Shown in pieces: positions 18,901 through 34,405 of a stretch of DNA of 60,315 bases. Source of the DNA: a virus (taxonomy: Duplodnaviria; Caudoviricetes); IMG/VR virus record IMGVR_UViG_3300044996_000347, positions 1-60,315 of that record, one strand, 5' to 3'. Numbering within the stretch: the first letter of the stretch is position 1; every line of letters starts with the position of its first letter. Made by a program: the position numbers and the translations under genes. The notes beneath the pieces are model-generated. The model saw only the letters and a list, made by a program, of their open reading frames with translations. It was not told where the DNA came from and did no database searches.

Positions 18901-20911
18901 ACCAGATGTATTTACTACCCAAACAAGAGCAGTAAATGACCAATTCCAATCTGGATATTATATAACAGATATGCTTGGAAATACGGGCTGGAACTTTACC
19001 TTAATTCAAGATGACATAGCATCAACTAATCATCCAATATCTTATCCATTAATTTTAGAATATAATGGAACTCTAAATCAAAATGATACTAACCTAAATT
19101 TAACACAAAAAGGAACAATACAAATTAAAGTAGGATGTGCAATAGACCCAGATAGTATAGGAAATGTAACTCATAATTTAACATTAAGAAACGAAGATGG
19201 AACTTATAATTATACAGTAAATGGTTCATTTAGATGCCCTAATGATTTAAATGTTTGGATTTCATTTGATACTTCAGCCGCTGCATCCGGCAGGTATAGA
19301 ATGAATATAACTGCAATATCTGGAGATAATTCGGCAGACATAAAATCAAGATTAACTGATAAAAATTTTACTATAGATAATAGCCCCCCATATTTTACTG
19401 CGATACCAAATAATTCATCTTTAATTTATGGCAAGGATGGTTTATCTGCGGCTTTTAATGCTTCCGATACTCTTAATCCTCCAGTAACTTATAGCATAAA
19501 CTGGACTGAAAAATTCCAGATTGATAGTTTGGGTGTTTTAACCAATACTACGACTTTATCTGGAGGAGAATATTTAATTAAAGTAATGGTTAATGACAGC
19601 ATAAATAATCAGAATAGCACTATTTATAAGGTCATAGTCAATCAAACATCAATGAATTTATCAATATCAGGAACAACTCCAATTAACTATGGAACAACTA
19701 CTGATGTAGTTGGTTCTAATTGTCCTTCTCAATTAACATGTACTTTATCTCCGTCTAATGGAGTTTATGGTGCTGGAACAAAAACATTTAATTATTCAAC
19801 TATTGGAAACGAAAATTATAGTTCAAGTTCTATTACAAAGAATATTTTGATAAATAAAATTGCAAGTTCAATCTATTTATATTTGGATGGATTAAGACAA
19901 AGCAAAACAATACACGCCTATTCAACTTTAAATTCTACGGCAGTTATAAATACAGGAAATAACATAGATATAGAATTATATGTAGCTGGAACAGGATATA
20001 TCGGGGCTTCTCCATTAGAAAATCTTTCTAAGTTTTCTACAGCCGGATTGTATAATATAACTGCTATTTATCCTTCAAGTGAAAATTACACTTCTAGTTT
20101 TGAAAGGCAGTATGTAACTGTTATAAGCAACGAATCTCAAAGTAAATGCAATATAACAAGCGGGACTTATACAAATCAGCATGGTTCTGAAAAGATGTAT
20201 AATAAATTATGCAATTCGATAGATTTTGGAGTAGTTTATACAATTAAAAGAGGTTCTGATATTTCAATTAATATCCCAATAATTGAGAATGATAATAAGA
20301 AAATGGTTGGGGGATATTGTGAAATCAGTTTAGACTATCCTAATGGAACCGCATTTATAGTTAATCAACCAATGAATGTATTTGATGGTTATGCAAGTTA
20401 TTCCTTTGAGATGATAGATTCCTCTGGTGAATTAAGGGGTGATATATATTGTAATAATGGAAAAGATACTGGAATAAGTTTATTTGGAATAGAATCTACT
20501 GCAACTGGCTCTGGGTTTTCTACAGCTAAAGCTGTAATTTATATAGTTATTTTAATTGTATCAATATTGATTTTTGGAGGATTTCTGGTCATAGGATTTT
20601 CTGTTCCATATAAAAACAAAACAGATGAGATGACTGGATATGTTATTGCATTAAGCAATCTGAAATATGTAAAAATAGGGGCTTTTGCATTTGCATATCT
20701 TGCTGCTATGTTTATATCATATTTCTCTTGGATGATTTGCTTTGCATATTTAGACATGGAATTTGTTTCAAATATGTTTAGATTTATGTTTTATGGGTTT
20801 GGAGCAGCTTTAGTTCCATTATTTATTTTGGGGGTTTATGTAGTAATCGCAAACATAGTCAGGGATAGTAAAATTGCAGACCTTTTGAGCAGGGGGATAA
20901 GAACAAAATGA
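12974..20911 (+). CDS. Giant (2645 aa) secreted, membrane-anchored adhesin with Ig-like, CBM4/9-like and LamG domains
   Basis: Signal peptide; NGGFE...W CBM-like motif; WTHL...LYING...FNGTIDEVRIWNRSLS LamG motif; three C-terminal TMs; abundant N-x-S/T sequons. Confidence 0.88.
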   Translation: MKNRGGIMFFVFLGLILSVLLVPNARANAFTETISSAYNSMIDWITSFFTGIKVLEDAHLLDANKNYVSDIYNQIKSQDNKWETIPADNWIWMKFDQNLTNCGHLFIYGKAKNKTKVELYQEGEEKPFAYFYMNEEKLYDIKLNTIREGSNILYLKTSGEIKVDYIFDPNPTCSGTYLGQAGTGAICHTCSNPCNCYYQCDGSESCGGLTGIYHECFWDGGQCVGGSECDVPGAQNDSFAGINNPPYYYNTTTNISRGYSYVGELVNVSGLVKDLETNVSTAWVNSYSEINYTGENNFSGIKTGYQNFGRNYYAAQTFTAISEDNIYGACVNITRNYALTSANNLTISIRQIILGGVYGSDLVSAKVLNTAISNSSYNLTCVNFTSVYKPSAGTTYGLVISSPSSTGDSAYSVAIDNSTGTDGMYKRYYAGYTYDYPAEDMQYFIILYGTFDIATDYFTINGNDKSVSKVIRTPFAGINSYDFCANDTTGLEKCYTYYINTQNETPASQGYTPNGQIISLPNNTKINGVNTLTFNVYENSNQVCEQEYANVSTACGGLSTGNYATTGSWNNVRKLYDGEYWTYTYPYINDSSLLINYTKPSNATNLSKLYYKGGFTEKELDIPQTCWAYNETKISFRITSSYYILIKNSSVYCFNGSGWVNMYFANGTSGFYGVFYEERMNWRIPSPDKTILQNISVWFKNSSDTTYNTLEACSSVDLITQECELDIRNTTKFTENVSYNFQLRACDIYGICNNSIDVKTYRVDNGAPSIKNLKIIYSNNATSAKAGAVINFYINASDNSTLINNSWINTGEINGSSFNLNNISGTNRVGEWSYWNAAVTVNYTENQIPAIIPFYFNDSASPQNERDSGFAVYIDNSFPNYSNQIINPSVIYNNDIVSFKIDVTDNYRLKKATLNLYYANWTRPPNLINASKNNGGFETAGAGGADVFANWGEQAGNGKIVRDTVDYYEGSASVRFDTNTTNQYMYQDVLPASPNNYKRYRYSFAAKTNTTNAYVRVYSGTEYTRHNLSSNWQNFSGEFSNAYTRLYLDPETVINVTLWIDNFEIEEAFISNITLNGTSATATRSMRLKTANYTFNFTLYDDAGNTIQSARQNFSVLGNENPINISLISPANSAIMKNPINFSFNITGDNATICEVNYDGNILGNITNVAANQLKSLSINSSENYGDWWITCDNADGKTYTSNTYNLTIDLTNPNVSYFNPANNIYINSSLYNFTANITDNQEVNNATISIYNSSGSLFNKTTTMILAPIYFIGTLIGNFIDGIYTYFWEIYDTAGNYFRGENYTLTVDTTYSNINFVSPTPDSGTLTVNRSFIINISINELNLANLTYNWNGTNYPVYDNSLLLMYNLDNKSSLGESSTEVFDLSQYGNNGTANAVWTSSGKYGGAFQFNATAGQGIVVNTNNDSFNINDSTTASLTITAWVKHLTTPSEKNIVSKAPGGIGNNKGWLFYFSGSSFGVTYNNGSASGQWVGSAAVTADTWTHLSAVFNSTGIALYINGVLKNNHVYNRTGSFANSNAVTIGKRGSTTGTFNGTIDEVRIWNRSLSADEVNQMYNRNLQKYNSTQWYLYVNQSKNSTMGLTTGNYTYQAFTTDLAGNINQTEQRSYEVDISPPNCTLLSKTPSDILDNSTGILSIILNCTDRAGINITKIGDHYPFFITRSVDVFISSAGIPNYWSTRYPNNSLAVTGNLTPLYKIWRALGRNEGYWYENLTESGLSDCSGLSPCYAPLNDTFSYAIEDGNYGHFTVTAVDSTNTSVIINYTHPAVDISAFRQSVYLSYENMVNEAKKNFTIRNNAWVLTKRFDAEAYGNTSNYTMNSFRNFGMEDTPTKTLRIYYCNSSIENSSGGIPNGFTAISNSNCNLINSLTSTEINNRVFTDINSSYSKSAYGIINGKFAGITATREFYIMYESPETGANKGYNIRYVNGSTNTDIGFNETRTAWTSTNQGGVWAQTSWTPDVFTTQTRAVNDQFQSGYYITDMLGNTGWNFTLIQDDIASTNHPISYPLILEYNGTLNQNDTNLNLTQKGTIQIKVGCAIDPDSIGNVTHNLTLRNEDGTYNYTVNGSFRCPNDLNVWISFDTSAAASGRYRMNITAISGDNSADIKSRLTDKNFTIDNSPPYFTAIPNNSSLIYGKDGLSAAFNASDTLNPPVTYSINWTEKFQIDSLGVLTNTTTLSGGEYLIKVMVNDSINNQNSTIYKVIVNQTSMNLSISGTTPINYGTTTDVVGSNCPSQLTCTLSPSNGVYGAGTKTFNYSTIGNENYSSSSITKNILINKIASSIYLYLDGLRQSKTIHAYSTLNSTAVINTGNNIDIELYVAGTGYIGASPLENLSKFSTAGLYNITAIYPSSENYTSSFERQYVTVISNESQSKCNITSGTYTNQHGSEKMYNKLCNSIDFGVVYTIKRGSDISINIPIIENDNKKMVGGYCEISLDYPNGTAFIVNQPMNVFDGYASYSFEMIDSSGELRGDIYCNNGKDTGISLFGIESTATGSGFSTAKAVIYIVILIVSILIFGGFLVIGFSVPYKNKTDEMTGYVIALSNLKYVKIGAFAFAYLAAMFISYFSWMICFAYLDMEFVSNMFRFMFYGFGAALVPLFILGVYVVIANIVRDSKIADLLSRGIRTK

Positions 20912-21135
20912 CAAGTAAATCAAATCAAAAATCAGGAGTATCATTCTGGATGTTTAAAGCTCCGGTAGCATTAAAACAAGTATTAGATAATGTTAGAAGG
21001 GAAAGAATTAAGAGAGGGAAAGATTTAGAAATGAAAAGTTATAGAAGGCTTGGACTTGCTATAGCTAGGCATAATAATCTTATTAGGGATTTAATGAATG
21101 CAGATATGAAGGAGGAAATGAAAAATGAGCAGTAA
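20908..21135 (+). CDS. Small basic hypothetical protein
   Basis: Overlaps both neighbouring genes. Confidence 0.65.
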   Translation: MTSKSNQKSGVSFWMFKAPVALKQVLDNVRRERIKRGKDLEMKSYRRLGLAIARHNNLIRDLMNADMKEEMKNEQ

Positions 21136-21661
21136 AGCACAATTCACACTATTCCACTTTATAATATTTTCTTTCTTAGCTGTGATTTTCTTTGCTGGAT
21201 TAATTTACATTATGGGTCAGTTAAATAGTGTATTTAATCAAATTGGATTAGCCAATGAAGTCAATGCAGGGCAATCAGGATATGTAAATATGAGCCAAGC
21301 ATCCCAGCAAATTTGGGGAAACGCATATCAATCTATACAAGCATTAAGAATGGTTGCGATAGTATATATTTTATCTCTTGCAGTGATAACTATAATAATC
21401 GGAGCATTTGAAAGGAAATATCCTTTCTTGTTTATAGTCTATATTTTAATAACCGTATTGGCAATAATCTTTGCACCGCAGATTTCAAATGCTTATGAGA
21501 AGATACTTGAAACAAACATATTTGGCGGAGAATTGGCAAATTTCTCAACCGCTAATTATTTATTGCTTAATCTTCCAACTATTGTCATGTTTATTGGGAT
21601 ACTTGGAACGATATTTTTATTAATAAATTTAATCAGAACAGCGGGAGAACAATCAATATGA
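21125..21661 (+). CDS. Polytopic membrane protein with class III-like leader (SKA|QF)
   Basis: Four hydrophobic segments; NxS sequons in loops. Confidence 0.8.
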   Translation: MSSKAQFTLFHFIIFSFLAVIFFAGLIYIMGQLNSVFNQIGLANEVNAGQSGYVNMSQASQQIWGNAYQSIQALRMVAIVYILSLAVITIIIGAFERKYPFLFIVYILITVLAIIFAPQISNAYEKILETNIFGGELANFSTANYLLLNLPTIVMFIGILGTIFLLINLIRTAGEQSI

Positions 21662-24084
21662 AGCATAAAATAAGCTATTATAATCGATTTATAGCCATCT
21701 TTTTTATCTGTATGATGTTTTATATGAGTTTTGTTTTAGCTTTGCCGAAGGAAATAGCAAGATGGACTTTCGATAATAATTCCACAAATTCAACTATTAC
21801 GGCTTATGGAATTAATGCAACAACTATTGGAACAGTGGGATTCAATGAAGGTGCATTAAATTCTACCCGTGGTAATTTAAATCTAACACAAGGAAAAGGA
21901 GCATTGTTTATGACTGGCAGTAATTCAGTATGTGCAAGGGTAAAGACAACAAATCACAGCCTTGCGGGTATATTTGAGTATCAATGGATTTATGAATTTA
22001 GAATTAATGGCGGTATGCTGACTTTCTCTGCTTCAGACAGCCCATCAACAAATGTTTATTCAAATACAAATCAATCAACGGGAACTTGGCAGCACTTTTG
22101 TGTTGTAAGATACGCAGGAAGTAATTATACAATGTATATAAATGGAACTTATAGAAATAGTTCAACAGATGCTATAGGAAAAGAATATTCAAATGAAATA
22201 GTTATAGGAGCAAATTATGTTCATGCAGCTCAATTTGGGGGTTTAATTGATAATATAAGAGTGTTTAATGGCTCTTTAAGTGAGTCGGAAGTTATTGATG
22301 TTTATAATAATATATTTCCAGTAGAGGTTAGTTTATCATCCCCCGCTAATAATGGTTATCTAATTAACTTTCCATATAGACTAAACGCATCTATTCAGAG
22401 CCAGAACGAAACTTTAATTAATTCTAGTTTCTATGTTTATTATTCGAACGGTTCTCTCCAAAAAATTTATAACAATACAATCACTGGAAGCTTGAATACT
22501 TCTTCAATGATGATAGACAACCTTACTTTAGGCAGTTATATTTGGAATGTTCATGCTTGTGATGCTTTGGGGTGTGCATGGTCTCCTATTAATTATACTT
22601 TTACTTCGGGGTATGCAATTAATTCTATAAATTATAATTCTACTTCAAATTCAGGTTCGTTAGAATCAATAGGAATAAATTTAACATATTCATCTATTTA
22701 TACGGGAATAAATGTTATTTTAAATTATAATGGGACAAATTATACTATGTCCGCCTTAGATACAGGAATGACTAAAAATTATTTATACAGTATAACTACT
22801 CCTTCTGTTTCTGCACAGACTAATACCCCATTCTTTTTTAAAATTATATTAACTAATTCCAATGGAACTTCAGTAATTACTACTAGTTCATATAATCAAA
22901 CTGTGAGCCCTCTTCTAATTGATAATTGCGGTTCATATACTAAAGTATTGCTGAATATGAGCATTTTAGATGAAGAATCTTTGCTTCCATTGAATGGAAC
23001 AATTATTCTTACTGCAAATATTTATACATCTGGAACAAATACTCTTATAACCTCATATAATAGTTCATTCAATTATATATACCCCACTCCTGCGAGGATT
23101 TGCTTGTCAAATATTTCCACAACTTATGATATGGATTACCAGATTCAATTTTGGTCTAATTCATCTTACTTTAAGAAATATAAAACTATCCAAAATATGC
23201 AGATAACAAATTCAACTTTGCCGCAGAATATAATATTGTACGATTTGCAGCAGTCATCGGGATATTCTTTCAGTGTGATAGTTGTAGGCAATTTATATTC
23301 TACAAATGGCAATGCAGATTTATTAGTTGATGTTCAAAAGAAATATATCTCTCAAAATAAATTTATTTCCATAGAAAGTTCAGAGACAAGTTCAGACGGG
23401 ATAGCAATAGCTCATTTAATTCCAAATTCAGAAATATATAACTTTGTTGTAAGTTATGCTGGAGTTACTTTAGGTACATTTAATAATTATCAGGTTCAAT
23501 GCCAAAATGTTGTGACCAGTTCATGTGCTATTACTTTAAATCTTGCCCAATCAACTGCTCAACTCCCAGATTTTTATAACTATGGAAATATAAGCCAAGT
23601 CCTTCAACTTGTAAATAATACCTTGTATCATACATTCAGTTCCACCGACGGAATAACACATACTATAAGAAGCTGGGTTATAAAAAATGATGGATATTCA
23701 AATACAACAATATGCAACAATACTGCTGTTGGAACATCTGGAACAATAGCATGTGATATCCCGGTGGTGTATCAAGACAGTGATTTTTGGGTGAGGACTT
23801 ATGTAGATGGAAATTACATCAGCTCAAATTTCTTTTCTCAAGGAACAAATCATAATTGGTATGGAGCAGATATAATTATAGAGATATTAATGTTTAGCTG
23901 TCTTACTTTATTACTAGTTTATCACCCTATAACTATAACCTTGGGGGCAGTCTTAGGGATGACCTTTTCTGTTCTTTTATTATTTGCAGGTCAAGGAAAT
24001 TTTGGCTCTATATTTGGAGCTGTCTTATTTTATATTATTGGAGGTATTGTTGTAATATGGCAAATATCAAGAAGACAATTATGA
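21658..24084 (+). CDS. Secreted LamG/Ig-like protein with three C-terminal TMs (putative virion spike or terminal protein)
   Basis: Signal peptide, WQHFCVV...MYING...GLIDNIRVFNGSLS, many sequons. Confidence 0.85.
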   Translation: MKHKISYYNRFIAIFFICMMFYMSFVLALPKEIARWTFDNNSTNSTITAYGINATTIGTVGFNEGALNSTRGNLNLTQGKGALFMTGSNSVCARVKTTNHSLAGIFEYQWIYEFRINGGMLTFSASDSPSTNVYSNTNQSTGTWQHFCVVRYAGSNYTMYINGTYRNSSTDAIGKEYSNEIVIGANYVHAAQFGGLIDNIRVFNGSLSESEVIDVYNNIFPVEVSLSSPANNGYLINFPYRLNASIQSQNETLINSSFYVYYSNGSLQKIYNNTITGSLNTSSMMIDNLTLGSYIWNVHACDALGCAWSPINYTFTSGYAINSINYNSTSNSGSLESIGINLTYSSIYTGINVILNYNGTNYTMSALDTGMTKNYLYSITTPSVSAQTNTPFFFKIILTNSNGTSVITTSSYNQTVSPLLIDNCGSYTKVLLNMSILDEESLLPLNGTIILTANIYTSGTNTLITSYNSSFNYIYPTPARICLSNISTTYDMDYQIQFWSNSSYFKKYKTIQNMQITNSTLPQNIILYDLQQSSGYSFSVIVVGNLYSTNGNADLLVDVQKKYISQNKFISIESSETSSDGIAIAHLIPNSEIYNFVVSYAGVTLGTFNNYQVQCQNVVTSSCAITLNLAQSTAQLPDFYNYGNISQVLQLVNNTLYHTFSSTDGITHTIRSWVIKNDGYSNTTICNNTAVGTSGTIACDIPVVYQDSDFWVRTYVDGNYISSNFFSQGTNHNWYGADIIIEILMFSCLTLLLVYHPITITLGAVLGMTFSVLLLFAGQGNFGSIFGAVLFYIIGGIVVIWQISRRQL

Positions 24085-24554
24085 ATAAAAAGGCAAGAGC
24101 ATTTGTCCAAATAGTATTGGGAATAATAGTCATTACTTTCTTTGCTATGACTTTAGTGGCATTTCCTCTTAGATTTATAGGGGAAACAAATCCAAATTCT
24201 GAAATAATCACCGAAGGAAGTTTATCCAACAGCTATTATTCAATGAACAGCTCACTTAAAAATTTAGAAAATATGAAAGATAATATTCAAGCTCAACTTT
24301 CTGGTGCTAAGGTAACCCCCGCAGATTATATATTCCTTATTTTTCAAGGAGCTTTTGAAATACCAAAAACAATGTTTTCCTTTGTAGTTTCTGGAGTAGT
24401 AAGCATATCAGAATTATTTACTGGAGGATTAGTAGCAGATTCTGGAATCAGCATGGTAATAACTACAGGAGTATCTATTTTATTTGCGGGGATAATTATA
24501 ATAATAGTCATTGCGGTTATAAAATTTATAAGGGGGAATGATGCTGAAAGATGA
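24081..24554 (+). CDS. Membrane protein with class III-like leader (KKARA|F)
   Basis: N- and C-terminal TMs; ATGA overlap suggests a start at 24081. Confidence 0.75.
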   Translation: MNKKARAFVQIVLGIIVITFFAMTLVAFPLRFIGETNPNSEIITEGSLSNSYYSMNSSLKNLENMKDNIQAQLSGAKVTPADYIFLIFQGAFEIPKTMFSFVVSGVVSISELFTGGLVADSGISMVITTGVSILFAGIIIIIVIAVIKFIRGNDAER

Positions 24555-24877
24555 CATATCCTGAATTAAATTCGACATTAGTATCAAACAACTTAGCAGA
24601 GATTCTCGTCTATGCTAATACAGTAACTCACCAATGGTTTGGTATAACTTTAGTTATCTCTTTTTTTATAACTATATTATTAGCTTCATCATTTATGCAG
24701 TTTAGATATTCTGGAAGAATAAAACCCGAAACAAGTTTTCTTGCAAGTTCATTTGCTACTTTGGGATTTGCCGTAATATTAGAGCAATATTCTGGAATCT
24801 TGAATACAACTTATTTTTTTATATTGATAGCAATAACTATTTTATGCTTCATTTGGGTAGTATTCAGTTCTGATTAA
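24551..24877 (+). CDS. Three-TM membrane protein
   Basis: Hydrophobicity pattern. Confidence 0.75.
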   Translation: MTYPELNSTLVSNNLAEILVYANTVTHQWFGITLVISFFITILLASSFMQFRYSGRIKPETSFLASSFATLGFAVILEQYSGILNTTYFFILIAITILCFIWVVFSSD

Positions 24878-24941
24878 AAGATAACTTAGTTTACGAAGTT
24901 TACAAACAATTTAAATACTTTTCAGCAGTGATATTTTTAGG

Positions 24942-24987
24942 TTTAGCAGGAAGTAGTCTAATAGCTGAACCGCTATTTCTTGCTAAA
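24942..24987 (+). promoter_or_regulatory. 15-bp stem hairpin in the 5' leader of the putative capsid gene
   Basis: tttagcaggaagtag / ctatttcttgctaaa with two G-U pairs, between TATA tttaaata (about 24910) and SD gaaaggaggt. Confidence 0.55.
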
Positions 24988-25031
24988 TTAACTTAACACA
25001 ATTTGAAAGGAGGTTTTACCTCAAAAAAACT

Positions 25032-25379
25032 ATGGATTACACAAAATTAATGTCTAAATTCAAGATGAATAGAAAGGGAGTTTTTGGATTGTCCGCAATC
25101 CAGTCTTTCTTTGTAGCTATCTTGGGTATAGGATTACTTGCTTATGTAATTGTCATAATTATGGGTTCTTTGCAAAGTGCAAATATTGTCACCAGCGGCT
25201 CATTAGCCTCTAACCAGACAAATTACATTTTGACAAATGTATCCTCTGGAGTTACAGGGTTCTTTAGCTCTATAAATCCAGTTTATGCTATACTGGCAGT
25301 ATTAGTTATAATCTTAGTACTAGTTGTTCTTGTAAGAGTTGTTCAGTCACCTGCTGGAAACTCTAGTGTTCAACTATAA
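25032..25379 (+). CDS. Putative major capsid protein (two hydrophobic helices, prepilin-like leader RKG|VF)
   Basis: Helical hairpin with NQT/NVS sequons in the loop; own promoter and strong SD. Confidence 0.7.
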   Translation: MDYTKLMSKFKMNRKGVFGLSAIQSFFVAILGIGLLAYVIVIIMGSLQSANIVTSGSLASNQTNYILTNVSSGVTGFFSSINPVYAILAVLVIILVLVVLVRVVQSPAGNSSVQL

Positions 25380-25510
25380 GGTTGTAATTAGTAGATAACG
25401 GAGGCGTGGTTTCCTCCTCTGTAACTCATTGGAAACCATTTATCATTATACTTTGTTTAAAAATGGCTTTGCAGGTAGCCTAGAATACCTGCTTTAAAAT
25501 CATTGCAAAA

Positions 25511-25642
25511 ATGCCAATCAAATTAGAAAAAAAATTAATGAAAGAAACAAGAATTAAGTTTCACTCAGTAAAATCTCCAAGAGCCAGAACTTATATTTTT
25601 AGAACTCTGCGAAAAACAGGAGGGAAACCTAGAAGAAGATGA
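25511..25642 (+). CDS. Small basic protein, putative nucleoprotein
   Basis: MPIKLEKKLMKETRIKFHSVKSPRARTYIFRTLRKTGGKPRRR; ATGA-coupled to the next ORF. Confidence 0.6.
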   Translation: MPIKLEKKLMKETRIKFHSVKSPRARTYIFRTLRKTGGKPRRR

Positions 25643-25737
25643 AAAAGTTTAACGACGATATATTAAAACCGGATGAGTATAATCTTATTAAAAAAAAGAA
25701 AAAAGCAAAAAAACACGGAAAGAAAAAGAAAAGATGA
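25639..25737 (+). CDS. Very small Lys-rich protein
   Basis: MKKFNDDILKPDEYNLIKKKKKAKKHGKKKKR; ATGA overlaps on both sides. Confidence 0.5.
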   Translation: MKKFNDDILKPDEYNLIKKKKKAKKHGKKKKR

Positions 25738-25943
25738 AATGCAAATTTGGAAGAGAATTAAGGATGGGCATGAAGATTGAGAGAAAACATGCTCATTTAT
25801 TTCCTAAAAATGTCAGGAAGGAAATAGTTAAAAGAATTGTTTTAGACCATATCAAAGAAAATCCTTGTTATTATTCAAAGGGATTAATTCCTATGGAAAG
25901 AAAATTGAAAGGGGGTTTTTATGGGAAAAGAATTATTAAATGA
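25734..25943 (+). CDS. DUF5661-like small viral protein
   Basis: ELRMGMKIE..H...IVLDHIKENPCYY pattern. Confidence 0.6.
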   Translation: MKCKFGRELRMGMKIERKHAHLFPKNVRKEIVKRIVLDHIKENPCYYSKGLIPMERKLKGGFYGKRIIK

Positions 25944-26499
25944 TAAAAGGGGAGTTTTTGGGCTGAGTGCGATTCAACTATTCTTTGTAGCTATCTTGAG
26001 TATAGGATTACTTGCTTATGTAATTGTTATAATTATGGGTTCTTTGAGTGGAACTACAATTCTCAGCAAAAGTTCTACTACCGTAGCAAATGAAACTTAT
26101 ACAGCAAGTGTTCCTGCTTGGATTAACTCTACAGGTTACACTTTAAGTAAAGCTTCAACCCAAGGATTCTCGGCAACAAGCTTATTGGTAATTAATGCCA
26201 CCGATGGGACTACAGTTCCGACAGCAAACTATACTTACACCTCTGCGGGAGTTGTTACAAATACAACACCTAAAGTTTATAGTGTTGTAAATATTACTTA
26301 TACTTACAACTATAATACTCAACACCAAAATAATTTAGAGGGAGTTCTAACCAATACTTCGAGTGGAGTTACAGGGTTCTTTAGCTCTATAAATCCAGTT
26401 TATGCTATACTGGCAGTATTAGTTATAATCTTAGTACTAGTTGTTCTTGTAAGAGTTGTTCAGTCACCTGAAAGAACTCAATCTGCACCACAGCTATAA
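25921..26499 (+). CDS. Putative minor capsid protein, paralog of 25032 with an inserted extracellular beta domain
   Basis: Same KRG|VF leader and both TMs; Thr-rich insert with several sequons. Confidence 0.7.
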   Translation: MGKELLNDKRGVFGLSAIQLFFVAILSIGLLAYVIVIIMGSLSGTTILSKSSTTVANETYTASVPAWINSTGYTLSKASTQGFSATSLLVINATDGTTVPTANYTYTSAGVVTNTTPKVYSVVNITYTYNYNTQHQNNLEGVLTNTSSGVTGFFSSINPVYAILAVLVIILVLVVLVRVVQSPERTQSAPQL

Positions 26500-26802
26500 T
26501 GGAAGTTATTTGGCACTTTCTAACTCAGCCAAATCGTTAGTGGATTTTTCGTTAAAATCCATTTTTTATTTTTACTATTTTTAAGTTGTTATAAAAATAT
26601 ATAAAGAAAAGAATTTTAAAATTAAGATGAAATTAAATGAACAAACGAAAGAATATGAAAGTAAAGATAATAACTAACTCCGGTTATAAGTATTTTGGTG
26701 AGAAGATTTCTGAAAATACAATATTTATAGAAATTATTGATGAAAAAGAAGGAAAGATAAAAGTTCCATTAGTAAATATTTCTTTTATGAAAGAGGTAAA
26801 AG

Positions 26803-28134
26803 ATGGAAACTGACCAAATTGAATTAATGAAATGCAGAAATTGTAAATTTTGCAGTATTCCTAAATGCCCTGAACTAGAACATGCTGTATTTAGATGTTC
26901 AAAAGAAATTTCAGATGATAGAAGTATTGTTCAGCTAGAATCCTCTTGTTTTAATGGATTGTTTGAAAAATTAGAGAATAGTGAAATAAAAGAAGTATAT
27001 TATGAAATAATTAATATATTAAAAGAATTTATTGAAACAAGCGAGGAAAATTACCAATTCATTGCTTTATGGATATTGGGAACTCATTTTCACGATTACT
27101 TTCAAACTTACCCCTATCTTTTCATAAATGCAATGAAAGGTTCGGGGAAAAGTCGATTACTAAAATTAATCAAAACTTTATCTTGGCATGGAGATATGTT
27201 AGCTTCTTTGTCTGAAGCAGTCTTGTTTAGAACTTCTGGAACTTTATGTATTGATGAATTTGAGGAAATAGGCGGTAAAGATAAGAATAGTTTAAGAGAA
27301 TTACTTAATACGGCATATAAAAGGGGTGGAAAGGTAAAAAGGATGAAAAAGAGGCATACTGTTGTAGGAGATGAACAAGTAGTTGAAGAATTTTCTACTT
27401 TTAGACCTATTGCTATTGCTAATATTTGGGGGATGGAAGAAGTATTGGGGGATAGATGCCTTAACATTGTTTTAGAGAAGTCTTCCAATTCTACCATTAC
27501 TCGAAAGATAGAAAACTTTGAAAATAACCCCAAAATAGCAAAAATCATAGAAAAAATAGCCAAAATCCAAATTCAGTGTCGTTTGTGTCGTGTCGTTACG
27601 CAAAAAAACATATATGAGGAGTGGAATAACTATTTAAATATAACGACACTAACAACACATACTACACTAACTACACTTACTACATTTACTACACAAACGA
27701 CACAAAACGACACTAATATCACCTTTTTTGATAAAATTATAAAAACTGATTTAGATGGAAGAAATTTAGAACTACTATTTCCACTTTTTTTAATTGCAGA
27801 AGAAATAGGAGTTATAGATATAATTATTTCTATTGGAGTTAAGATTTCACATGATAAAAAAGAAGAAGATATAAATGAAAGCAGTGATGTATTAGTTTAT
27901 AGGCTTGTTTCTAATCAGACTACAAAAGATTGGATTAAAGTATCTGATTTAGTTAATTCTTTATCTTGGGAAATGAAAAATGAGGAAACAGATAAATGGC
28001 TTAATGCAAAATGGATGGGAAAGTGTCTTAAAAGGTTAAATTTACTAATCGATAAAAAAAGATTAAGTGATGGTAGAGTGGTAAAATTAAATATAGAAAA
28101 AGCAAAGGAGAAATTAAAAATCTTTGAAAGATGA
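26803..28134 (+). CDS. Replication helicase-like AAA+ ATPase (DUF3631-like) with N-terminal Cys cluster
   Basis: AMKGSGKS Walker A, LCIDE Walker B, LGDRC Arg finger, wHTH-like C-terminus. Confidence 0.85.
   Translation: METDQIELMKCRNCKFCSIPKCPELEHAVFRCSKEISDDRSIVQLESSCFNGLFEKLENSEIKEVYYEIINILKEFIETSEENYQFIALWILGTHFHDYFQTYPYLFINAMKGSGKSRLLKLIKTLSWHGDMLASLSEAVLFRTSGTLCIDEFEEIGGKDKNSLRELLNTAYKRGGKVKRMKKRHTVVGDEQVVEEFSTFRPIAIANIWGMEEVLGDRCLNIVLEKSSNSTITRKIENFENNPKIAKIIEKIAKIQIQCRLCRVVTQKNIYEEWNNYLNITTLTTHTTLTTLTTFTTQTTQNDTNITFFDKIIKTDLDGRNLELLFPLFLIAEEIGVIDIIISIGVKISHDKKEEDINESSDVLVYRLVSNQTTKDWIKVSDLVNSLSWEMKNEETDKWLNAKWMGKCLKRLNLLIDKKRLSDGRVVKLNIEKAKEKLKIFER
27575..27714. repeat. Iteron-like 9-mer array inside the helicase gene
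   Basis: Eight (a/t)ac(g/t/a)aca-type units at 27642..27714 facing three inverted gtgtcgt units at 27575..27597. Confidence 0.8.
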
Positions 28135-28364
28135 CAACTAAATCTTCTTCAATCTGCCCCTTTTTTCAAAAAGGAGATTGTGTTCACCTTAATCCAGATT
28201 CTCTCGGAAAAAAAGATAAAAGGGTATGTATTTATAATAATCAATTAAAATGTCCAGAATTTCTTAAATGGAAGAATAAACAAACCAAATGGGATTTTGA
28301 TAACTATTGGGTTTTAAGAGAAGTTAAAAAACTTGAGGAAGAAGAGTATGATTCACAGAACTAA
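28131..28364 (+). CDS. Small Cys/His-rich protein
   Basis: CPFF...CVH...C...CPEF. Confidence 0.65.
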   Translation: MTTKSSSICPFFQKGDCVHLNPDSLGKKDKRVCIYNNQLKCPEFLKWKNKQTKWDFDNYWVLREVKKLEEEEYDSQN

Positions 28365-28561
28365 ACTTGTAGTAATTCCCAAAAGGATTAAACAATCTGA
28401 GGTCTATATTTTCTCTTTAGTGGAGAGCTCACCTCTTTTTTTTGGCAGACGACCTAATGTTTTCAGATGTCGTAGGAAGGATGACGCCAAGTTCTGTGAA
28501 AAAGTGTTACCCCTAAATAATAATTATAAATATTTAAATACTTTAATATTATAATATTATA

Positions 28562-28699
28562 ATGAAAACAATAACAATAACAGAAAAGCTTTGGGATTAT
28601 CTTTGGAATACAAAAAGGGATAATCAAATGAAATCCCTTGAAGAAGCTATATGGAGTTATATTGCTTATGAAACTAAAGAAGAGGAGCAGGAAAAATGA
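28562..28699 (+). CDS. Small RHH-like DNA-binding protein
   Basis: MKTITITEKLWDYL...SLEEAI; TATA tttaaata about 30 nt upstream, leaderless. Confidence 0.6.
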   Translation: MKTITITEKLWDYLWNTKRDNQMKSLEEAIWSYIAYETKEEEQEK

Positions 28700-29115
28700 A
28701 TTTGGTTCAATACGAGAATTACTTAAAAGATATGGGAATATCTCAAATTATTGTAAATGAGGAAATCTGTGCTTATAAAGTTCAGAAAAGCTTTATAGAA
28801 GATTTTGGAGAGAGGATATGAATCATAAAACTTGCCCATATAAAAAAAATGAAAATTGCAAACTTACAAAAGAGCAATGTACCTTGCCATCAAGATTATA
28901 TAAAATCTGTTCAGAATATCAAGAAAAAGAGGAACTAAAAAATGAATGAAAGTTATGCAAAATCTGCAGCATCAAGTATACCATGAAAACCCACATAATC
29001 TATAAAGGCAAAGCCAAAGACTGCCAGAAATACCTTGAGTTATTAGAATGCAGGTTTTATGGGTATAAGTTGGAAGATGTAATTAAAATTATAAATAACC
29101 ACAAGGAGGAAAGAC

Positions 29116-29415
29116 ATGGTAACACTAAATGATTTTGCAAAAGCATATACACCAGAAGCAACTAAAAACATATCTGATTTGAAAGAAGTTGATGTTAGTC
29201 TTGAGCTTCAGAATAGAGAAGCACAGGACAAAGATGGCAACACTTTTAAATATAAAGTAATTGTTGTTAATGGTGAAGAATACAGAGTTCCAAATTCAGT
29301 TATTGGAAGCTTGAAAGCTATACTTGAAAAGAAACCAACTTTAAAGAAGTTCAGTGTAGCAAGACAAGGCAAAACAAAAGAAGATACCAAATATACGGTC
29401 ATACCTTTGGATTAA
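29116..29415 (+). CDS. Putative ssDNA-binding (OB-fold) protein
   Basis: Beta-rich, with C-terminal RQGKTKEDTKYTV motif; SD aggag. Confidence 0.6.
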   Translation: MVTLNDFAKAYTPEATKNISDLKEVDVSLELQNREAQDKDGNTFKYKVIVVNGEEYRVPNSVIGSLKAILEKKPTLKKFSVARQGKTKEDTKYTVIPLD

Positions 29416-29513
29416 GTTCGTATAAGCTGGATTAAGAGAAGTTTAATTTCAATTTAGCATTAACAGGAAAATTTTGCTCCTGTTTCATACTCTTCCATTA
29501 AAAACCTCATTTA

Positions 29514-29572
29514 GGGGGGATTAAGGGTGGAAGAGGGGTCAAATACCTACCCTATATTACCTTAATCCCCCC
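29514..29572. other. GC-rich 13-bp perfect hairpin
   Basis: ggggggattaagg / ccttaatcccccc. Confidence 0.8.
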
Positions 29573-29588
29573 GCTATTACTTAAAAAT

Positions 29589-30023
29589 ATGGAAACAATA
29601 AACAAACAAATTGTAGAATTGGAGAAAAAGATAGATTTAATAAAAAAATTCTGGGAGAAATATCTTGAATCTGATATTTTAGAACAACGAAGACAACTTG
29701 GAGAATTGGGCTTGGTGGATGATTTAGCCCAAGAAGGATTTCCAGACTGGAAAGATATGACAAAAGAAAAACAAATTGGGCTTCGCAAGCGTATTCTTGT
29801 AACAATATTACATGGATACTTAGATGATATGAGAAGCACTATTAAAGAAGCTATTATTGAAGATGCTTTTGAGAAGTTGAAAAAAAGAATTAGTATACAA
29901 GGTAATCTATCTCATAGGATTGTAGAAATAAATGGAGAATATAAACATCTTCATGATTATGTTCTTAATGAAATTGTAATAGATATTATCAATGAAATAA
30001 AATCAGAGGTAATAGGAAAATGA
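29589..30023 (+). CDS. Hypothetical helical protein
   Basis: 144-aa ORF. Confidence 0.7.
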   Translation: METINKQIVELEKKIDLIKKFWEKYLESDILEQRRQLGELGLVDDLAQEGFPDWKDMTKEKQIGLRKRILVTILHGYLDDMRSTIKEAIIEDAFEKLKKRISIQGNLSHRIVEINGEYKHLHDYVLNEIVIDIINEIKSEVIGK

Positions 30024-30072
30024 AGTTAACTGATTCTCAGCTATATAACTATGGGATAATTGGACAAGAATT

Positions 30073-30199
30073 AATAAAAGTTATAAAAAGAGCAGAAATG
30101 TTTGATAAACTTGTCATAAATGATATAAAATCTCATTTGATGAATAATCTAAACAAAAACAAGCGGGTAGATTAGCATGAAAACTAAAGAAGAAATTTT
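30073..30199 (+). repeat. Exact 127-bp direct repeat, copy 2
   Basis: Identical to 1..127. Confidence 0.97.
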
Positions 30200-30680
30200 A
30201 AGGATGAATAAAAAAGAATTATTTGCTTATAAATGGAATGACGATTTTGATGAAGAAGATGATTGTTCTGATTGTTATAATTGTTCAAATTGTGCTCATT
30301 GCCATAATTGTAATGATTGTTCTGATTGTTTTAATTGTTCAAATTGTGATGGTTGTTTTGATTGTGATGGTTGTTTTTATTGTTTTAATTGTTATTGCTG
30401 TAGAAATCTAAGAAGAGAAAGTTATTGTATCTGCAATATTAAATTAACTAGAGAAGAATATGAGAGGAAAATGGAGGAGTTGAAAAATGATAGAGAAGAT
30501 AAAGAATTAGGATTGAAGATCGCAACGAGTAGAGCAGAGCAGATATGGGGCAATGTCCTGAAAGAAGCAGAGCAGTTAATCATGCAATCTAAGGACAATA
30601 TTGTTATCCAAGAAGCTCTTGAGAAGTTAGCTAGGGATAAACTTAAAGAATTGGAGAATGAAAACAAGCGGGTAGATTAG
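30177..30680 (+). CDS. Cys-rich repeat protein paralog 2, fused to a helical domain
   Basis: CxxCxx repeats followed by EDKELGLKIAT... Confidence 0.8.
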   Translation: MKTKEEILRMNKKELFAYKWNDDFDEEDDCSDCYNCSNCAHCHNCNDCSDCFNCSNCDGCFDCDGCFYCFNCYCCRNLRRESYCICNIKLTREEYERKMEELKNDREDKELGLKIATSRAEQIWGNVLKEAEQLIMQSKDNIVIQEALEKLARDKLKELENENKRVD

Positions 30681-30681
30681 C

Positions 30682-31038
30682 ATGAAAACTAAAGAAGAAA
30701 TCTTGAAGATGAGCAAGCAAGAGTTATTTAATTATAAATGGACTGATGATTTAGCTCCAAAAAATTACTGCTCTAATTGCTTCAATTGCTCTGATTGCTT
30801 CAATTGCTCTGATTGCTCTTATTGCACTGATTGCTTCAATTGCTCTGATTGCTCTGATTGCTCTTATTGCTTTTATTGCTCTGATTGCTCTTATTGCTCT
30901 TATTGCTTCAATTGCTCTAATTGCTCTTATTGCAGGAACTTACACAATAAAAAAACAGGTTATTATATCTGCAATATAGAAGTAACTAAAGAAGAATACG
31001 AGAAGAAAATGGAGGAACTAAAAAATGATAGAAGATAA
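30682..31038 (+). CDS. Cys-rich repeat protein paralog 3
   Basis: 9-nt units using TGC codons. Confidence 0.85.
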   Translation: MKTKEEILKMSKQELFNYKWTDDLAPKNYCSNCFNCSDCFNCSDCSYCTDCFNCSDCSDCSYCFYCSDCSYCSYCFNCSNCSYCRNLHNKKTGYYICNIEVTKEEYEKKMEELKNDRR

Positions 31039-31621: not shown

Positions 31622-31828
31622 ATGAGATTAAAATTAAGAAAGGTGATGTCTTGTAAAAAACAAATAGTATATGGTTTAACAGTACCAAATGAGATAGCTA
31701 TTTTTTTTAAAGGAATTGAATTTGATGTTGAAAAATCAGGATGTTCTATTATATATACTTCTGGAGGAAATTCGATAATTACAACAAAAGAATTAAAAGA
31801 TTATAAATTTGAAGACGCAAAAATATGA
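31622..31828 (+). CDS. AbrB-like small DNA-binding protein
   Basis: KLRKV...YGLTVPNEIA; TATA upstream. Confidence 0.55.
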   Translation: MRLKLRKVMSCKKQIVYGLTVPNEIAIFFKGIEFDVEKSGCSIIYTSGGNSIITTKELKDYKFEDAKI

Positions 31829-33051
31829 AAAAGATAATAACAGTTTTATCAGATGCTCCATTCATCCCAACAGGATATAGAAATCAAGCAATACAACTTA
31901 TTCAACACCTTGAAAATGACGGGCATGAGATTCATTATCTGGCAAATGCATATATTGGAGCAACAATGAATGGTATAGAACTAACAGATGGAACAAAAAT
32001 AAAAGCAAAAATATACGGAAGTGCATACGGACAAGATTATTTTAGAAATCAATTAAGCCAGCATTTGAAAGAAACAAAGAGTGATATATTAATTATTTTG
32101 CTCGATACATTCATGCTTTATCCATGGTTATTAGAATTAGATTTAAGCCCAGCAAAAACTTATTTTTGGTTCCCATCAGATGGTGGTGGTGGAATGCCAA
32201 AAGGATGTGAAAACATACTAAAAAAAGTAGATTGTCCTGTCGCGATGTCCAAATTTGGACAAAAACAGGTATTTGATTATTATCAGATAAAGGCAGATTA
32301 TATACCTCACGGAATAGATAAAAAAAGATTTTTTAGGTTACCTGATAAGGAAAGAAATGAATTAAGAGCAAGATGGGGATTTAATGATAAATTTGTGATT
32401 GGAGTAGTTGCAAGAAATCAACCAAGAAAATTTCTTGATAGAACATTCAAAATAATGAGAATAATAAAAGAAAAAATACCCCATGCTGTTCTATTTCTTC
32501 ATTTGGACCCCAATGATGCCGCACAATCATTTAATATGGCTAGTGTAATTCAAAAATACGGACTTGAAAATAGAGTAATATTCTCTGGAATGCAAGCACA
32601 TAAAGGATTTGATTGGAATAAAATGAATGAAATATATAATTTAATGGACGTTTTTCTATTGACAACAAGCGGGGAAGGATTTGGAATACCCATAATAGAA
32701 GCAATGAGTTGTGAAGTTCCAGTGCTTATGACAGATTATACAACTTGCCAGGAATTAGTGAAAGATAATCAATCTGGAATAGGAATAGACTTAAGTGGGG
32801 TAGAAACAATTAATTGGAATGATATAAACTTGCAAGAAGCAGACATAAAATCTATTAATGGAACTATTATGGGAAGTTGGGAAGTTGAAAGAGGATGTTG
32901 TTCTATCACTGATGGAGCAGAAAAAATTATAAAACTTTACTTAAATCAAAATACAATAAAAGAATTAGGTAAAAATGGAAGAATTGCAGTTGAAAGAGAA
33001 TATGATTTTGGAAAAGTATATGAAAAATGGAAAAAAACATTATTTATTTAA
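31825..33051 (+). CDS. GT4 (GT-B) glycosyltransferase
   Basis: TGY, IPHG, ARNQPRK, GEGFGIPIIEAMSC. Confidence 0.93.
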   Translation: MKKIITVLSDAPFIPTGYRNQAIQLIQHLENDGHEIHYLANAYIGATMNGIELTDGTKIKAKIYGSAYGQDYFRNQLSQHLKETKSDILIILLDTFMLYPWLLELDLSPAKTYFWFPSDGGGGMPKGCENILKKVDCPVAMSKFGQKQVFDYYQIKADYIPHGIDKKRFFRLPDKERNELRARWGFNDKFVIGVVARNQPRKFLDRTFKIMRIIKEKIPHAVLFLHLDPNDAAQSFNMASVIQKYGLENRVIFSGMQAHKGFDWNKMNEIYNLMDVFLLTTSGEGFGIPIIEAMSCEVPVLMTDYTTCQELVKDNQSGIGIDLSGVETINWNDINLQEADIKSINGTIMGSWEVERGCCSITDGAEKIIKLYLNQNTIKELGKNGRIAVEREYDFGKVYEKWKKTLFI

Positions 33052-34217
33052 TTAACCCAAGTGAAGAAGGAATACTTGAGCATGCAGGAGATAGAGTACC
33101 TATAGGGTTAATTAGTATAGCAGGAAATTTAAGGAAACACGGATTCAAGCCAAAAGTTTTTGATTTAAACCATCAAGGTAGAGAAGAAGTAATACAGCAA
33201 GCATATCGTGAAAGACCACGAGCTATAGGGATATCTGCTTATACAAGTTGTATGTATGATCGTGCTGTTGACTTAGCAGAAAACTTAGAAGAAACTGAAG
33301 CAAGACTTATAGCTGGGGGATATCATGCAACATTCATGCCAGAAACATTGACAGATTATTTTGATGCAGTAGTCCAAGGAGAAGGAGAAGATGCAATGAT
33401 TGAAGCATTAGACCAGGACGGGATTATTAAGGCAAGTAGAGTTAATCTTGCAACAATACCACCATTAGATTTTAGATTTATTGACTTAAGAAAATATGGG
33501 ATAGGAAAAAAACAAGCAACAATGATAACAAGTAGAGGATGTCCATATTCATGTTCATTTTGTGGAAATATGGAACATCAAGTCAGATATAATACTCTTG
33601 ATGACATATTTAATCAATTTGAGCAAATAGATAGGGCAGGATTTGAATCAGTTTATTTTCTTGATGATGTATTCACAATGAATATGGAAAGAATGAGATC
33701 AGTTTTAAGTGGATTAAATATGCCATTTAGAGTAACAACAAGAGCTAATTTACTTAATCCTGCAAAATTGGATGAATTAGCAGATTCTGGATGCGAATGG
33801 TTAAGCATGGGGATAGAATCAGGAAACGATGACATTTTATTAAATTCAAGAAAAGGAATGACAACATTAGATAATTATATTGCAGTTAGGGAAGCATATA
33901 GAAGAGGAATAAAGACCAAGGGATTTTTCATAATTGGACTGCCAGGAGAGACAGAACAAACTGCAATGCAAACCATAGATTTCTCAAAAAGGTTAAGAGA
34001 TGTTGGACTTACAACAGCAGATTTCTATTATTTAATGCCATTCCCTGGTACACCAATATTCAGAAATCCAGAAAGATTTGGATTAAAAATTGTAGATAAT
34101 AATTGGAGAAATTATCTTCAAGCAGGGAAGAATGCCAAACCTGTTGTAGAAACAGAAAAATTAAAATTAAGCAAAATTGAGGAATTAGTAACTAAAGCAA
34201 GAGAACTATGGAAATAA
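33027..34217 (+). CDS. B12-binding radical SAM enzyme (class B methyltransferase-like)
   Basis: GGYHAT, GEGE, TSRGCPYSCSFC, GIESG, IIGLPGET. Confidence 0.93.
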   Translation: MEKNIIYLINPSEEGILEHAGDRVPIGLISIAGNLRKHGFKPKVFDLNHQGREEVIQQAYRERPRAIGISAYTSCMYDRAVDLAENLEETEARLIAGGYHATFMPETLTDYFDAVVQGEGEDAMIEALDQDGIIKASRVNLATIPPLDFRFIDLRKYGIGKKQATMITSRGCPYSCSFCGNMEHQVRYNTLDDIFNQFEQIDRAGFESVYFLDDVFTMNMERMRSVLSGLNMPFRVTTRANLLNPAKLDELADSGCEWLSMGIESGNDDILLNSRKGMTTLDNYIAVREAYRRGIKTKGFFIIGLPGETEQTAMQTIDFSKRLRDVGLTTADFYYLMPFPGTPIFRNPERFGLKIVDNNWRNYLQAGKNAKPVVETEKLKLSKIEELVTKARELWK

Positions 34218-34405
34218 TATGCATATATCAATTCAATCCAGAATTAATTGCATCAAAAGATCATGGAGATTGCAATCATTGTAAATCAAATGAAAGAAAT
34301 AAAATATGTAGATCATATACCCCAGTAAAAATAAAAGACCTTTATTGGATGTTTAATAGGCAATATGTTGAAAGCAGATTAAAGGAAATAACAGATGGAC
34401 AATAA
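34208..34405 (+). CDS. Small Cys-rich protein, homolog of 1486..1686
   Basis: Shared Cys/LYW pattern. Confidence 0.75.
   Translation: MEIICIYQFNPELIASKDHGDCNHCKSNERNKICRSYTPVKIKDLYWMFNRQYVESRLKEITDGQ

Follow-up and report, generated by a model that had tools for sequence, protein, structure and literature searches.

Spindle-shaped viruses of archaea are among the closest described systems for the paired hairpin genes analysed here. In the SSV1 record, a 61-bp 'direct repeat 3' is marked at 12926-12986, within VP1, and again at 13212-13272, within VP3; the basic VP2 comes next. For SSV19, the part of the structural report used here describes VP1 in the virion as a curved two-helix hairpin with its loop outside, a Z-shaped three-helix hydrophobic bundle in the tailspike VP4 and the adaptor B210 on which VP1 stacks, and a nozzle protein, C131, that is a four-helix bundle (PMC9351363). 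The nanohaloarchaeal spindle viruses DNSV-1 and DNSV-2 have a DPANN host; their genomes, 21-22 kb in size, encode a pair of paralogous hairpin capsid proteins as well as an AAA+ ATPase and a tyrosine integrase, and contain one gene of >1900 codons (bioRxiv 10.1101/2025.02.15.638363). Here we compare with these viruses a locus at 25032-26499 of the IMG/VR record IMGVR_UViG_3300044996_000347, in which two paralogous hairpin genes enclose small basic open reading frames (ORFs). The whole record of 60,315 bp was analysed and is referred to as the window.

The window is a composite: positions 1-30072 are a circular element, A, which carries the hairpin genes, and positions 30200-60315 are an incomplete tailed-virus genome, B. 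On balance, and with odds we put slightly better than even, the two genes encode the main (short) and the loop-decorated (long) shell proteins of a ~30-kb non-tailed archaeal virus, whose virion, by analogy, would probably be spindle-shaped or similarly built. An earlier reading of the same DNA from its letters alone (the original prediction) had proposed a fusellovirus-like capsid locus with ongoing gene conversion, citing SSV1 VP1 and VP3 as paralogs with an identical 3' repeat beside the basic VP2; the SSV1 annotation given above confirms this point of comparison.

Paralogous hairpin genes and gene conversion

The two genes, their repeats and the ORFs between them are as follows.

25032-25379, plus strand: short hairpin paralog, 115 amino acids (aa), from the ORF listing, hydrophobicity and an AlphaFold model
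25107-25172, plus strand: 5' repeat, copy 1, encoding helix 1; 64 of 66 positions identical to copy 2
25247-25353, plus strand: exact 107-bp repeat, copy 1, encoding helix 2, from base-by-base comparison
25511-25642, plus strand: basic ORF, 43 aa with 16 lysines plus arginines, matched in 5 related loci
25639-25737, plus strand: basic ORF, 32 aa with 15 lysines plus arginines, matched in 0 related loci
25734-25943, plus strand: basic ORF, 69 aa with 20 lysines plus arginines, Pfam DUF5661, matched in 19 related loci
25921-26499, plus strand: long hairpin paralog, 192 aa, 77 aa longer than the short form
25981-26046, plus strand: 5' repeat, copy 2
26364-26470, plus strand: exact 107-bp repeat, copy 2

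The short paralog consists of a basic leader with ..RKG, helix 1, a short loop with two conserved N-glycosylation sequons, helix 2 and a short tail. The leader and helices of the long paralog are the same, and its loop is expanded by ~80 aa and rich in NxS/T (7 sequons). The two mismatches of the 66-bp 5' repeat leave exact runs of 18, 28 and 18, and a repeat finder lists both pairs with lengths of 126 nt (93%) and 104 nt (86%). The match of the 69-aa basic ORF to DUF5661 has an E-value of 4.7e-7 and 30.5 bits (cut-off 27).

We compared the region 24500-30800 with Logan contigs from four lake-water runs, for which per-contig k-mer depths give a rough measure of abundance. In runs X2, X4 and X6 the 107-bp repeat is assembled as a unitig of its own, with depths (155.5/172.9/386.1) roughly double those of the flanking sequence (77.9/86/173.6); for run X1 this unitig is not among the pieces listed, and the doubling is seen in three of the four runs. 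Orthologous codons of the repeat region differ at synonymous sites in other genomes, and the identity of the two copies is not due to chance. The unitigs end at the repeats, where recombination might also delete or exchange the loop, as the original prediction suggested. A contig found in run X1 only matches 25123-25944, from helix 1 in the short paralog up to where the long paralog begins, and continues on either side into unrelated, GC-richer sequence; it may represent a related element or an assembly artefact.

Similar identity between paralogs was found beyond the window. The longest exact intragenomic match is 80-290 bp in 9 of the 23 genomes with both paralogs; it lies at the 3' end in the window and in L039, at the 5' end in six others (L007, L014, L016, L026, L049 and L052), and covers nearly the whole gene in L008. 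Within genomes, the mean DNA identity of the paralogs is 0.84 for helix 1 (32 codons) and 0.84 for helix 2 (24 codons), compared with 0.69 and 0.75 when the short gene is set against the long gene of another genome; none of 10,000 re-pairings in a permutation test reached the observed within-genome means. Where the same residue is encoded, the codons are identical in 70% and 62% of cases within genomes vs 43% and 46% between them. Against this comparison, the common codon usage of paralogs in one genome inflates their identity somewhat, but it cannot yield exact runs of 100 bp. Given the exact runs in 9 of 23 genomes and the excess of within-genome over between-genome identity, conversion is recurrent, hits either helix and spares the loop. 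The original prediction had the ORF lengths, the 107-bp and 66-bp repeats and the intervening basic ORFs right in every number, and its claim of ongoing gene conversion is borne out by the exact runs and the 10,000 re-pairings, which extend it to other genomes. The locus thereby offers a clean natural case of concerted evolution, in which helices that would form the lattice are homogenised and an exposed loop diverges.

Element A, the hairpin family and the proposed particle

Each paralog has two long hydrophobic helices. In the short form the hydrophobic stretches are at residues 16-54 and 74-111, and an AlphaFold model based on 36 relatives is a helical hairpin with helices at 3-49, 58-80 and 83-104 (mean predicted local distance difference test score, pLDDT, 74.6; predicted template-modelling score, pTM, 0.39). 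The short form combines two hydrophobic helices with a loop bearing glycosylation sequons, as in fusellovirus VP1/VP3. Among 450 candidates, 389 relatives of the short protein were recovered at E<=0.01, most of them 105-125 aa long and none with a Pfam domain; a profile search of 1.84 billion cluster representatives (50% identity) returned 343 matches at E<=1e-3 and 111 at E<=1e-10. The 35 other aligned family members are 64-79% identical to the short protein of the window, and across this alignment both helices are nearly invariant and the two loop sequons are kept. Distant members retain the same overall plan. In a few proteins of 350-930 aa, the resemblance to the family is confined to the final helix, or extends to both helices with a very large insert separating them. 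Four of 670-930 aa (P0283, P0305, P0373 and P0386) end in the invariant hairpin helix and in some of them the leader and helix 1 are also found at the start; inserts several hundred residues long can thus be accommodated in the hairpin, and loop inserts in relatives reach up to 800 aa.

Related loci comprise two in IMG/VR, two on contigs of metagenome-assembled genomes (MAGs) titled Candidatus Woesearchaeota and the best 80 of 87 in JGI metagenomes. A short-then-long pair is present in 35 of the 83 hairpin-bearing loci and most of the others are truncated by contig ends, so the pair is old and conserved, like VP1/VP3. The hairpin gene occurs in 2 of 201 genomes of the MAG's order and is not a core cellular gene.

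To assess the conservation of the surrounding genes, every ORF of the window was compared by tblastn with 85 loci, of which many are short. A module at 8337-26499 is conserved across the related loci, and no gene for a terminase large subunit (TerL) or an HK97 capsid lies within +-10 kb of the hairpin in any of the 85. The features of element A are as follows.

1-30072, plus strand: element A, a circle of ~30 kb represented by one complete turn; bases 1-127 recur at 30073-30199
1699-2229, plus strand: tyrosine integrase, 176 aa, catalytic part
3795-4676, minus strand: P-loop ATPase, 293 aa, with Walker A and B motifs and a C-terminal helix-turn-helix (HTH)-like helix pair
5343-5416, minus strand: tRNA-Met gene
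8337-12972, plus strand: head of the module, three conserved non-membrane proteins of 1074 aa (very basic), 193 aa (basic) and 215 aa
12974-20911, plus strand: glycoprotein, 2645 aa, in 23 of 85 loci
21125-21661, plus strand: protein of 178 aa with four hydrophobic helices, between both giant glycoproteins, in 23 of 85 loci
21658-24084, plus strand: glycoprotein, 808 aa, in 34 of 85 loci
24057-24554, plus strand: protein of 165 aa with one N-terminal and two C-terminal hydrophobic helices, in 31 of 85 loci
24551-24877, plus strand: membrane protein of 108 aa with 2-3 hydrophobic helices, adjoining the hairpins, in 57 of 85 loci
26803-28134, plus strand: P-loop protein, 443 aa, with weak primase/MCM-like matches, kept in the 25-kb relative

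The 2645-aa protein has a signal-like helix, Laminin_G_3 (E 3.8e-26) and Ig-like domains, 133 sequons and three C-terminal hydrophobic helices; the 808-aa protein has an N-terminal signal-like helix, a concanavalin A (ConA)-like lectin domain (Laminin_G_3, E 5.7e-16), 35 sequons and again three C-terminal hydrophobic helices. A stand-alone relative of 25,074 bp with a 92-bp end repeat (G001) is collinear with the window over 3795-28134 and has one hairpin gene, and TerL, tailed-virus genes and other capsid genes are absent from it; the hairpin is 66% identical between the two, compared with 26-48% for the neighbouring proteins. The 293-aa ATPase is a candidate counterpart of the AAA+ ATPase of spindle-shaped viruses, and the 443-aa P-loop protein is, judging from its weak matches, a probable replication protein. 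A divergent 21.6-kb relative in one MAG (G007:C3) has the same gene set, with a tRNA-Met gene at 10122-10196 (minus strand) beside a 304-aa integrase; the tRNA-Met of element A is probably an attachment site or a spare tRNA.

Two further observations concern these elements. The 443-aa protein has a central threonine-rich low-complexity insert of repeated T-T-x units at 27600-27700. SPFH/Band 7 proteins and one ice-binding-like protein (E 1e-58) are encoded in relatives of element A at 13401-14234 (minus strand) of L005 and at 8261-9145 and 6024-7574 (both minus strand) of L034, downstream of the hairpin/peptidase genes.

We infer the presence of the hairpins in virions, their cleavage and topology, the virion shape and the host along the following lines. 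Each hairpin would be synthesised with a short, basic leader whose last residues, [KR][GA], lie right before the first hydrophobic helix. A class III signal (prepilin, A24) peptidase, encoded by the virus in some relatives and by the host in the present case, would remove this leader. The two helices would then pack side by side into a hydrophobic lattice, both termini facing the DNA and the N-glycosylated loop facing outward. The giant lectin glycoproteins would be seated in the hairpin lattice by their three C-terminal hydrophobic helices and serve attachment, and repeated gene conversion would keep the helix-coding ends of the paralogs alike and leave the loop free to vary.

A number of comparisons with known capsid proteins weigh against this reading. 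Neither Pfam PF06281 (VP1_VP3), run against all six frames of the window, nor PF25665 (His1_capsid) gave a match at E<=10. Alignment of the hairpin family by hhalign to SSV1 VP1/VP3 had a probability under 3% (0.8-2%), and to His1 VP21 of 0.6%. PHROGs held no match for the hairpin or the small membrane proteins, and Pfam and PHROGs scans of the hairpin proteins returned nothing above cut-off. Searches of 50,697 phage and archaeal-virus records with the hairpin by tblastn, and of PDB sequences with the hairpin profile, gave no match at E<=10. At the level of fold, Foldseek of the hairpin model found 0 matches in PDB and 1 meaningless match in BFVD, a bare helical hairpin being uninformative in such a search, and VIA-align wide returned only coiled coils with Z<=5.5. 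Comparison of 12 module families with 27 SSV1 and His1 proteins by hhalign gave only weak ATPase matches: the best two of the 27 for the 293-aa ATPase were SSV1 B251 (probability 29.5%) and His1 ORF16 (16%), values that fell to 23% and 4% with a deeper alignment, and in BFVD this protein matches AAA ATPases of a generic kind, a protein of a Nitrosopumilus spindle virus not appearing before rank 33. Also, only two of the related loci are in IMG/VR, so virus callers mostly overlook these elements. In a protein-language-model atlas the nearest named clusters are VP1_VP3 (0.84) and His1_capsid (0.83), which by the calibration of the tool is a lead only.

As far as architecture and context go, the hairpins resemble spindle-virus capsid proteins; sequence and profile comparisons do not place them in those families. 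The homology to fusellovirus or His1 capsid proteins suggested by the original prediction is not supported by Pfam or hhalign, and the fold searches were uninformative; of its spindle-shaped-like virus the hairpin pair, the SSV1-like arrangement, the gene order and a stand-alone 25-kb genome hold up.

Four alternatives were ranked, in the order pleomorphic envelope protein, pilin, tailed-virus accessory protein and conjugative pilin. In the first, which we regard as unlikely and still the strongest of the four, the element would be carried by pleomorphic membrane-bounded particles or vesicles, as in pleolipoviruses or vesicle-borne plasmids, with the hairpins as envelope proteins and the giant glycoproteins as spikes. 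It accommodates the missing sequence link between the hairpins and spindle-virus capsid proteins, the fact that all structural candidates are membrane proteins, the P-loop ATPase and the spike-like C-terminal anchors of the large glycoproteins. No pleolipovirus family was matched in the Pfam or PHROGs scans, however, and the extreme conservation of the helices together with the three-helix anchors parallels SSV19 as far as its structure is described in the portion cited above; likewise, the size of 21-30 kb and the giant gene resemble what the considered part of the preprint reports for the nanohaloarchaeal spindle viruses.

The leader of the hairpins bears on the second alternative. Archaeal class III (prepilin) signal peptides share a consensus like [KR][GA] that precedes a hydrophobic helix. 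At the level of the motif, a leader that is basic and closes with [KR][GA] immediately ahead of helix 1 was recognised in 115 of 120 and in 110 of 150 members of the family. A Peptidase_A24 protein is encoded on one MAG contig (E 1.7e-8, above the Pfam cut-off), and an iterative search found A24 homologs of ~150 aa with both Asp motifs in 10 of the 83 loci, two more of which were confirmed by Pfam. In nine of these loci the gene lies 78-1106 bp beyond the long paralog on the opposite strand, and in the tenth it is 7.2 kb away. Seven of the 34 loci with >=1.5 kb of downstream sequence have an A24 gene. On the other side of the balance, the window has none, the remaining 27 of these 34 loci have none nearby, and a leader with a prepilin peptidase is what a pilin would have.

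The pair could belong to a type IV-like filament such as an adhesion pilus borne by a mobile element, its subunits cleaved by the prepilin peptidase and polymerised by host machinery, with the lectin proteins as adhesins. The class III signal-like motif before helix 1, the A24 genes adjoining the pair and the glycosylated lectin neighbours all agree with such a filament. It is nevertheless a little less probable in our view than pleomorphic particles: an invariant second, C-terminal hydrophobic helix is no pilin feature, the short form lacks a globular domain, and the hairpin gene is rare in the order. Pfam scans of 60 window ORFs found no pilus-assembly ATPase, platform protein or VirB4-like protein, and the 8 largest ORFs downstream in the peptidase-bearing loci likewise include none of these. 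Because these assembly genes were not found and only 2 of 201 genomes carry the hairpin gene, we consider the A24 peptidase a candidate maturation enzyme of the shell proteins rather than part of a pilus. The original prediction had set against itself a pilin encoded together with a transfer apparatus; of that combination the pilin-like leader and, in relatives, a prepilin peptidase are present, and neither a pilus-assembly nor a transfer apparatus was found.

The same logic can be extended to the known spindle-shaped viruses. PibD reads positions -2/-1 of its substrates and tolerates +1. In the SSV1 VP1 ORF, K-G stands immediately before the Glu that starts the mature 73-aa protein. Iverson et al. 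describe the VP1 protease of SSV1 as unknown and report that processing depends on the five residues ahead of the cleavage site, while Gln or Ala can take the place of the Glu (PMC5748691). Such a mutation pattern fits a peptidase reading -2/-1 and tolerating +1. A pibD mutant adsorbs SSV9 and fails to propagate it, which the consulted portion of that report ascribes to pilins (Rowland et al., PMC7217056). No paper linking prepilin peptidases to spindle-virus capsid maturation turned up in our literature searches, and the words peptidase, prepilin and pilin are absent from the text of the nanohaloarchaeal spindle-virus preprint as far as it was available (bioRxiv 10.1101/2025.02.15.638363). 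We tentatively propose, as a possibility with less than even chances, that spindle-type hairpin shell proteins are pilin-like preproteins whose leader is removed by a class III signal (prepilin, A24) peptidase, the gene for which, in the present family, would often be supplied by the virus itself beside the capsid genes. With K-G preceding the mature Glu in the VP1 ORF, this logic would name the SSV1 VP1 protease and, if true, would link pilin-type membrane insertion with the origin of hairpin capsids. For the maturation of the small hydrophobic hairpins from which spindle-shaped virions are made, this large and well-conserved family offers a concrete candidate in its prepilin-type motif and the peptidase gene that is often nearby.

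Two replicons in one record

The third alternative makes the hairpins accessory membrane proteins (holin, exclusion or host-surface remodelling) of a tailed virus in the same 60-kb record. The window is the whole of this record, which is labelled linear and 99% complete, and it includes a complete HK97 head module at 45805-56920, which the original prediction did not notice and which at first glance speaks against a fusellovirus-like capsid. The genes for HK97 capsid, terminase, portal and tail tube share contig and strand with the hairpins:

45805-47184: terminase
47237-49315: portal with Mu F domain
52987-53856: HK97 capsid protein
55010-55375: gp10-like connector
55919-56920: tail tube

The proteins of both halves occur on equal numbers of contigs (6-7 each, the longest of 60,898 bp), so the same join was produced at least twice. 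In addition, the last ORF of the window reads in frame into base 1 for 34 codons, and its alignment with the homolog in a tailed relative (G002) extends 4 residues past the junction.

The head module nevertheless belongs to a replicon other than that of the hairpins. Bases 1-127 of the record recur exactly at 30073-30199. The usual largest k of metaSPAdes is 127, and the repeat sits at the contig start as an assembly branch vertex would. In the four lake-water runs, a 3454-bp contig at 26441-29894 has depths of 46.3/77.9/86/173.6 and a contig at 30170-30690 depths of 19.6/28.5/51.1/38.2, a ratio of 2.4/2.7/1.7/4.5. A 321-bp unitig at 29865-30185 has about the summed depth (60.8/103.4/133.5/234.4) and is continuous across 30073, and a further contig of B-like depth joins 29627 to 29857. 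The tailed relative G002 (41,998 bp, 81-bp end repeat), whose capsid protein is 66% identical, aligns collinearly with 31825-60313; it has no match to window positions 1-31580 and no hairpin gene. Behind the homolog of the window's last ORF it carries ~10 kb of tail genes that the window lacks. Since the depths differ and each half has a stand-alone relative without the other (the 25-kb relative in the case of the hairpins), A and B are separate replicons. The HK97 capsid, terminase and portal genes thus have 1.7-4.5-fold lower depth than the hairpin replicon and separate relatives.

The join from A to B runs through a ~340-bp segment (29857-30199) that is present in both. The tailed virus and the hairpin element seem to share a recently exchanged cassette, and a cointegrate of A and B may exist as a minority form; a 60-kb circle as the main form was set aside given the depths and the unbroken unitig across 30073. 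Because the 60-kb 'complete' record joins two replicons via this shared segment, neither its stated completeness nor a host or lifestyle assignment based on the entire record is safe. An accessory role of the hairpins in the tailed virus is accordingly very improbable. Least credible of all are conjugative pilins (VirB2/Ced-like) of an integrative conjugative element, which would suit ~100-aa two-helix hairpins with a cleaved-leader look and the integrase on the element, but leave unexplained the conserved loop sequons, the inserts of up to 800 aa in relatives and the lack of any VirB4, coupling-protein or VirB6-like match among the 60 scanned ORFs.

Several features of B and of the junction deserve mention. 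An HNH endonuclease gene at 56954-57457 is inserted between the tail tube and the next tail gene, and a 385-aa ORF is all that the window holds in place of the 836-aa tape-measure-like gene and four further tail genes of G002. Region 31825-41474, partly common to G002, encodes glycosyltransferases (GT1, GT2, GT4), two radical SAM proteins (one B12-binding) and methyltransferases, and has the look of a cluster for glycan modification carried by the virus. At 40821-45431, four consecutive genes encode DNA methyltransferases, one of the C5 and three of the N6/N4 type; a ParB N-terminal domain is fused to one of the latter three. Three paralogs rich in cysteine (15-20 Cys), built from tandem 9-bp units that give a repeated C-x-x pattern, are encoded at 105-416, 30177-30680 and 30682-31038; they flank the shared A/B segment on both sides, and the contig of one run differs in repeat number, going back 35 at 30799.

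Possible host and comparison with known spindle-shaped viruses

The host is possibly a DPANN archaeon (Woesearchaeota), judging from binning. The DPANN host named in the original prediction comes down to two hairpin-locus contigs that were binned into Woesearchaeota MAGs and are wholly viral-looking; on the three MAG contigs (L007, L008 and G007:C3) no flanking cellular genes were found, only genes of the element. The group of element A is widespread and poorly catalogued, and may have been described before. Three points appear to be novel: the leader of prepilin type together with an A24 peptidase encoded next to the pair, the documented recurrence of conversion, and the recognition that the record is a composite. 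With this group, the little-known mobilome provisionally linked to DPANN archaea gains widespread elements of 21-30 kb that encode giant lectin glycoproteins.

Compared with archaeal type IV pilins and their peptidases PibD/FlaK, the hairpins have in common the [KR][GA] leader before a hydrophobic helix and, in relatives, an A24 gene beside the substrate genes. Unlike type IV pilins, they have a second, C-terminal hydrophobic helix and no gene for an assembly ATPase or platform protein, and they are encoded on viral-type elements and rare in cellular genomes.

VP1/VP3 of SSV1 and SSV19 and the proteins described here are two-helix hydrophobic hairpins with a glycosylated loop. In SSV1 as in element A the two paralogs are identical over a stretch of 3' DNA, of 61 bp and 107 bp respectively, and a small basic protein is encoded beside them. 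An N-terminal leader is also common to both, with K-G directly before the mature Glu in the SSV1 VP1 ORF. The SSV1 order is C792-B78-C166-VP1-VP3-VP2, and here too an ~800-aa glycoprotein and small membrane proteins precede the hairpins. The three C-terminal helices of the 2645-aa and 808-aa proteins and the four helices of the 178-aa protein recall the SSV19 tail as described in the cited portion of its report, in helix counts and order only. In contrast to SSV1 and SSV19, element A has the ~80-aa loop insert in the long paralog, a genome twice as large and the 2645-aa glycoprotein, its relatives encode an A24 peptidase, and its likely host is a mesophilic lake archaeon.

His1 resembles element A in that a two-helix capsid protein, VP21, is followed by membrane proteins and anchored glycoproteins, and in its DnaA-like ATPase with a C-terminal HTH; it differs by its single capsid gene, protein-primed polymerase and linear genome. 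With the nanohaloarchaeal DNSV-1/2 and the Asgard Wyrdviridae, compared here in gene content, element A has all four gene kinds in common, and the giant gene, which in DNSV-1/2 encodes a glycoside-hydrolase domain, encodes ConA-like lectin domains in element A.

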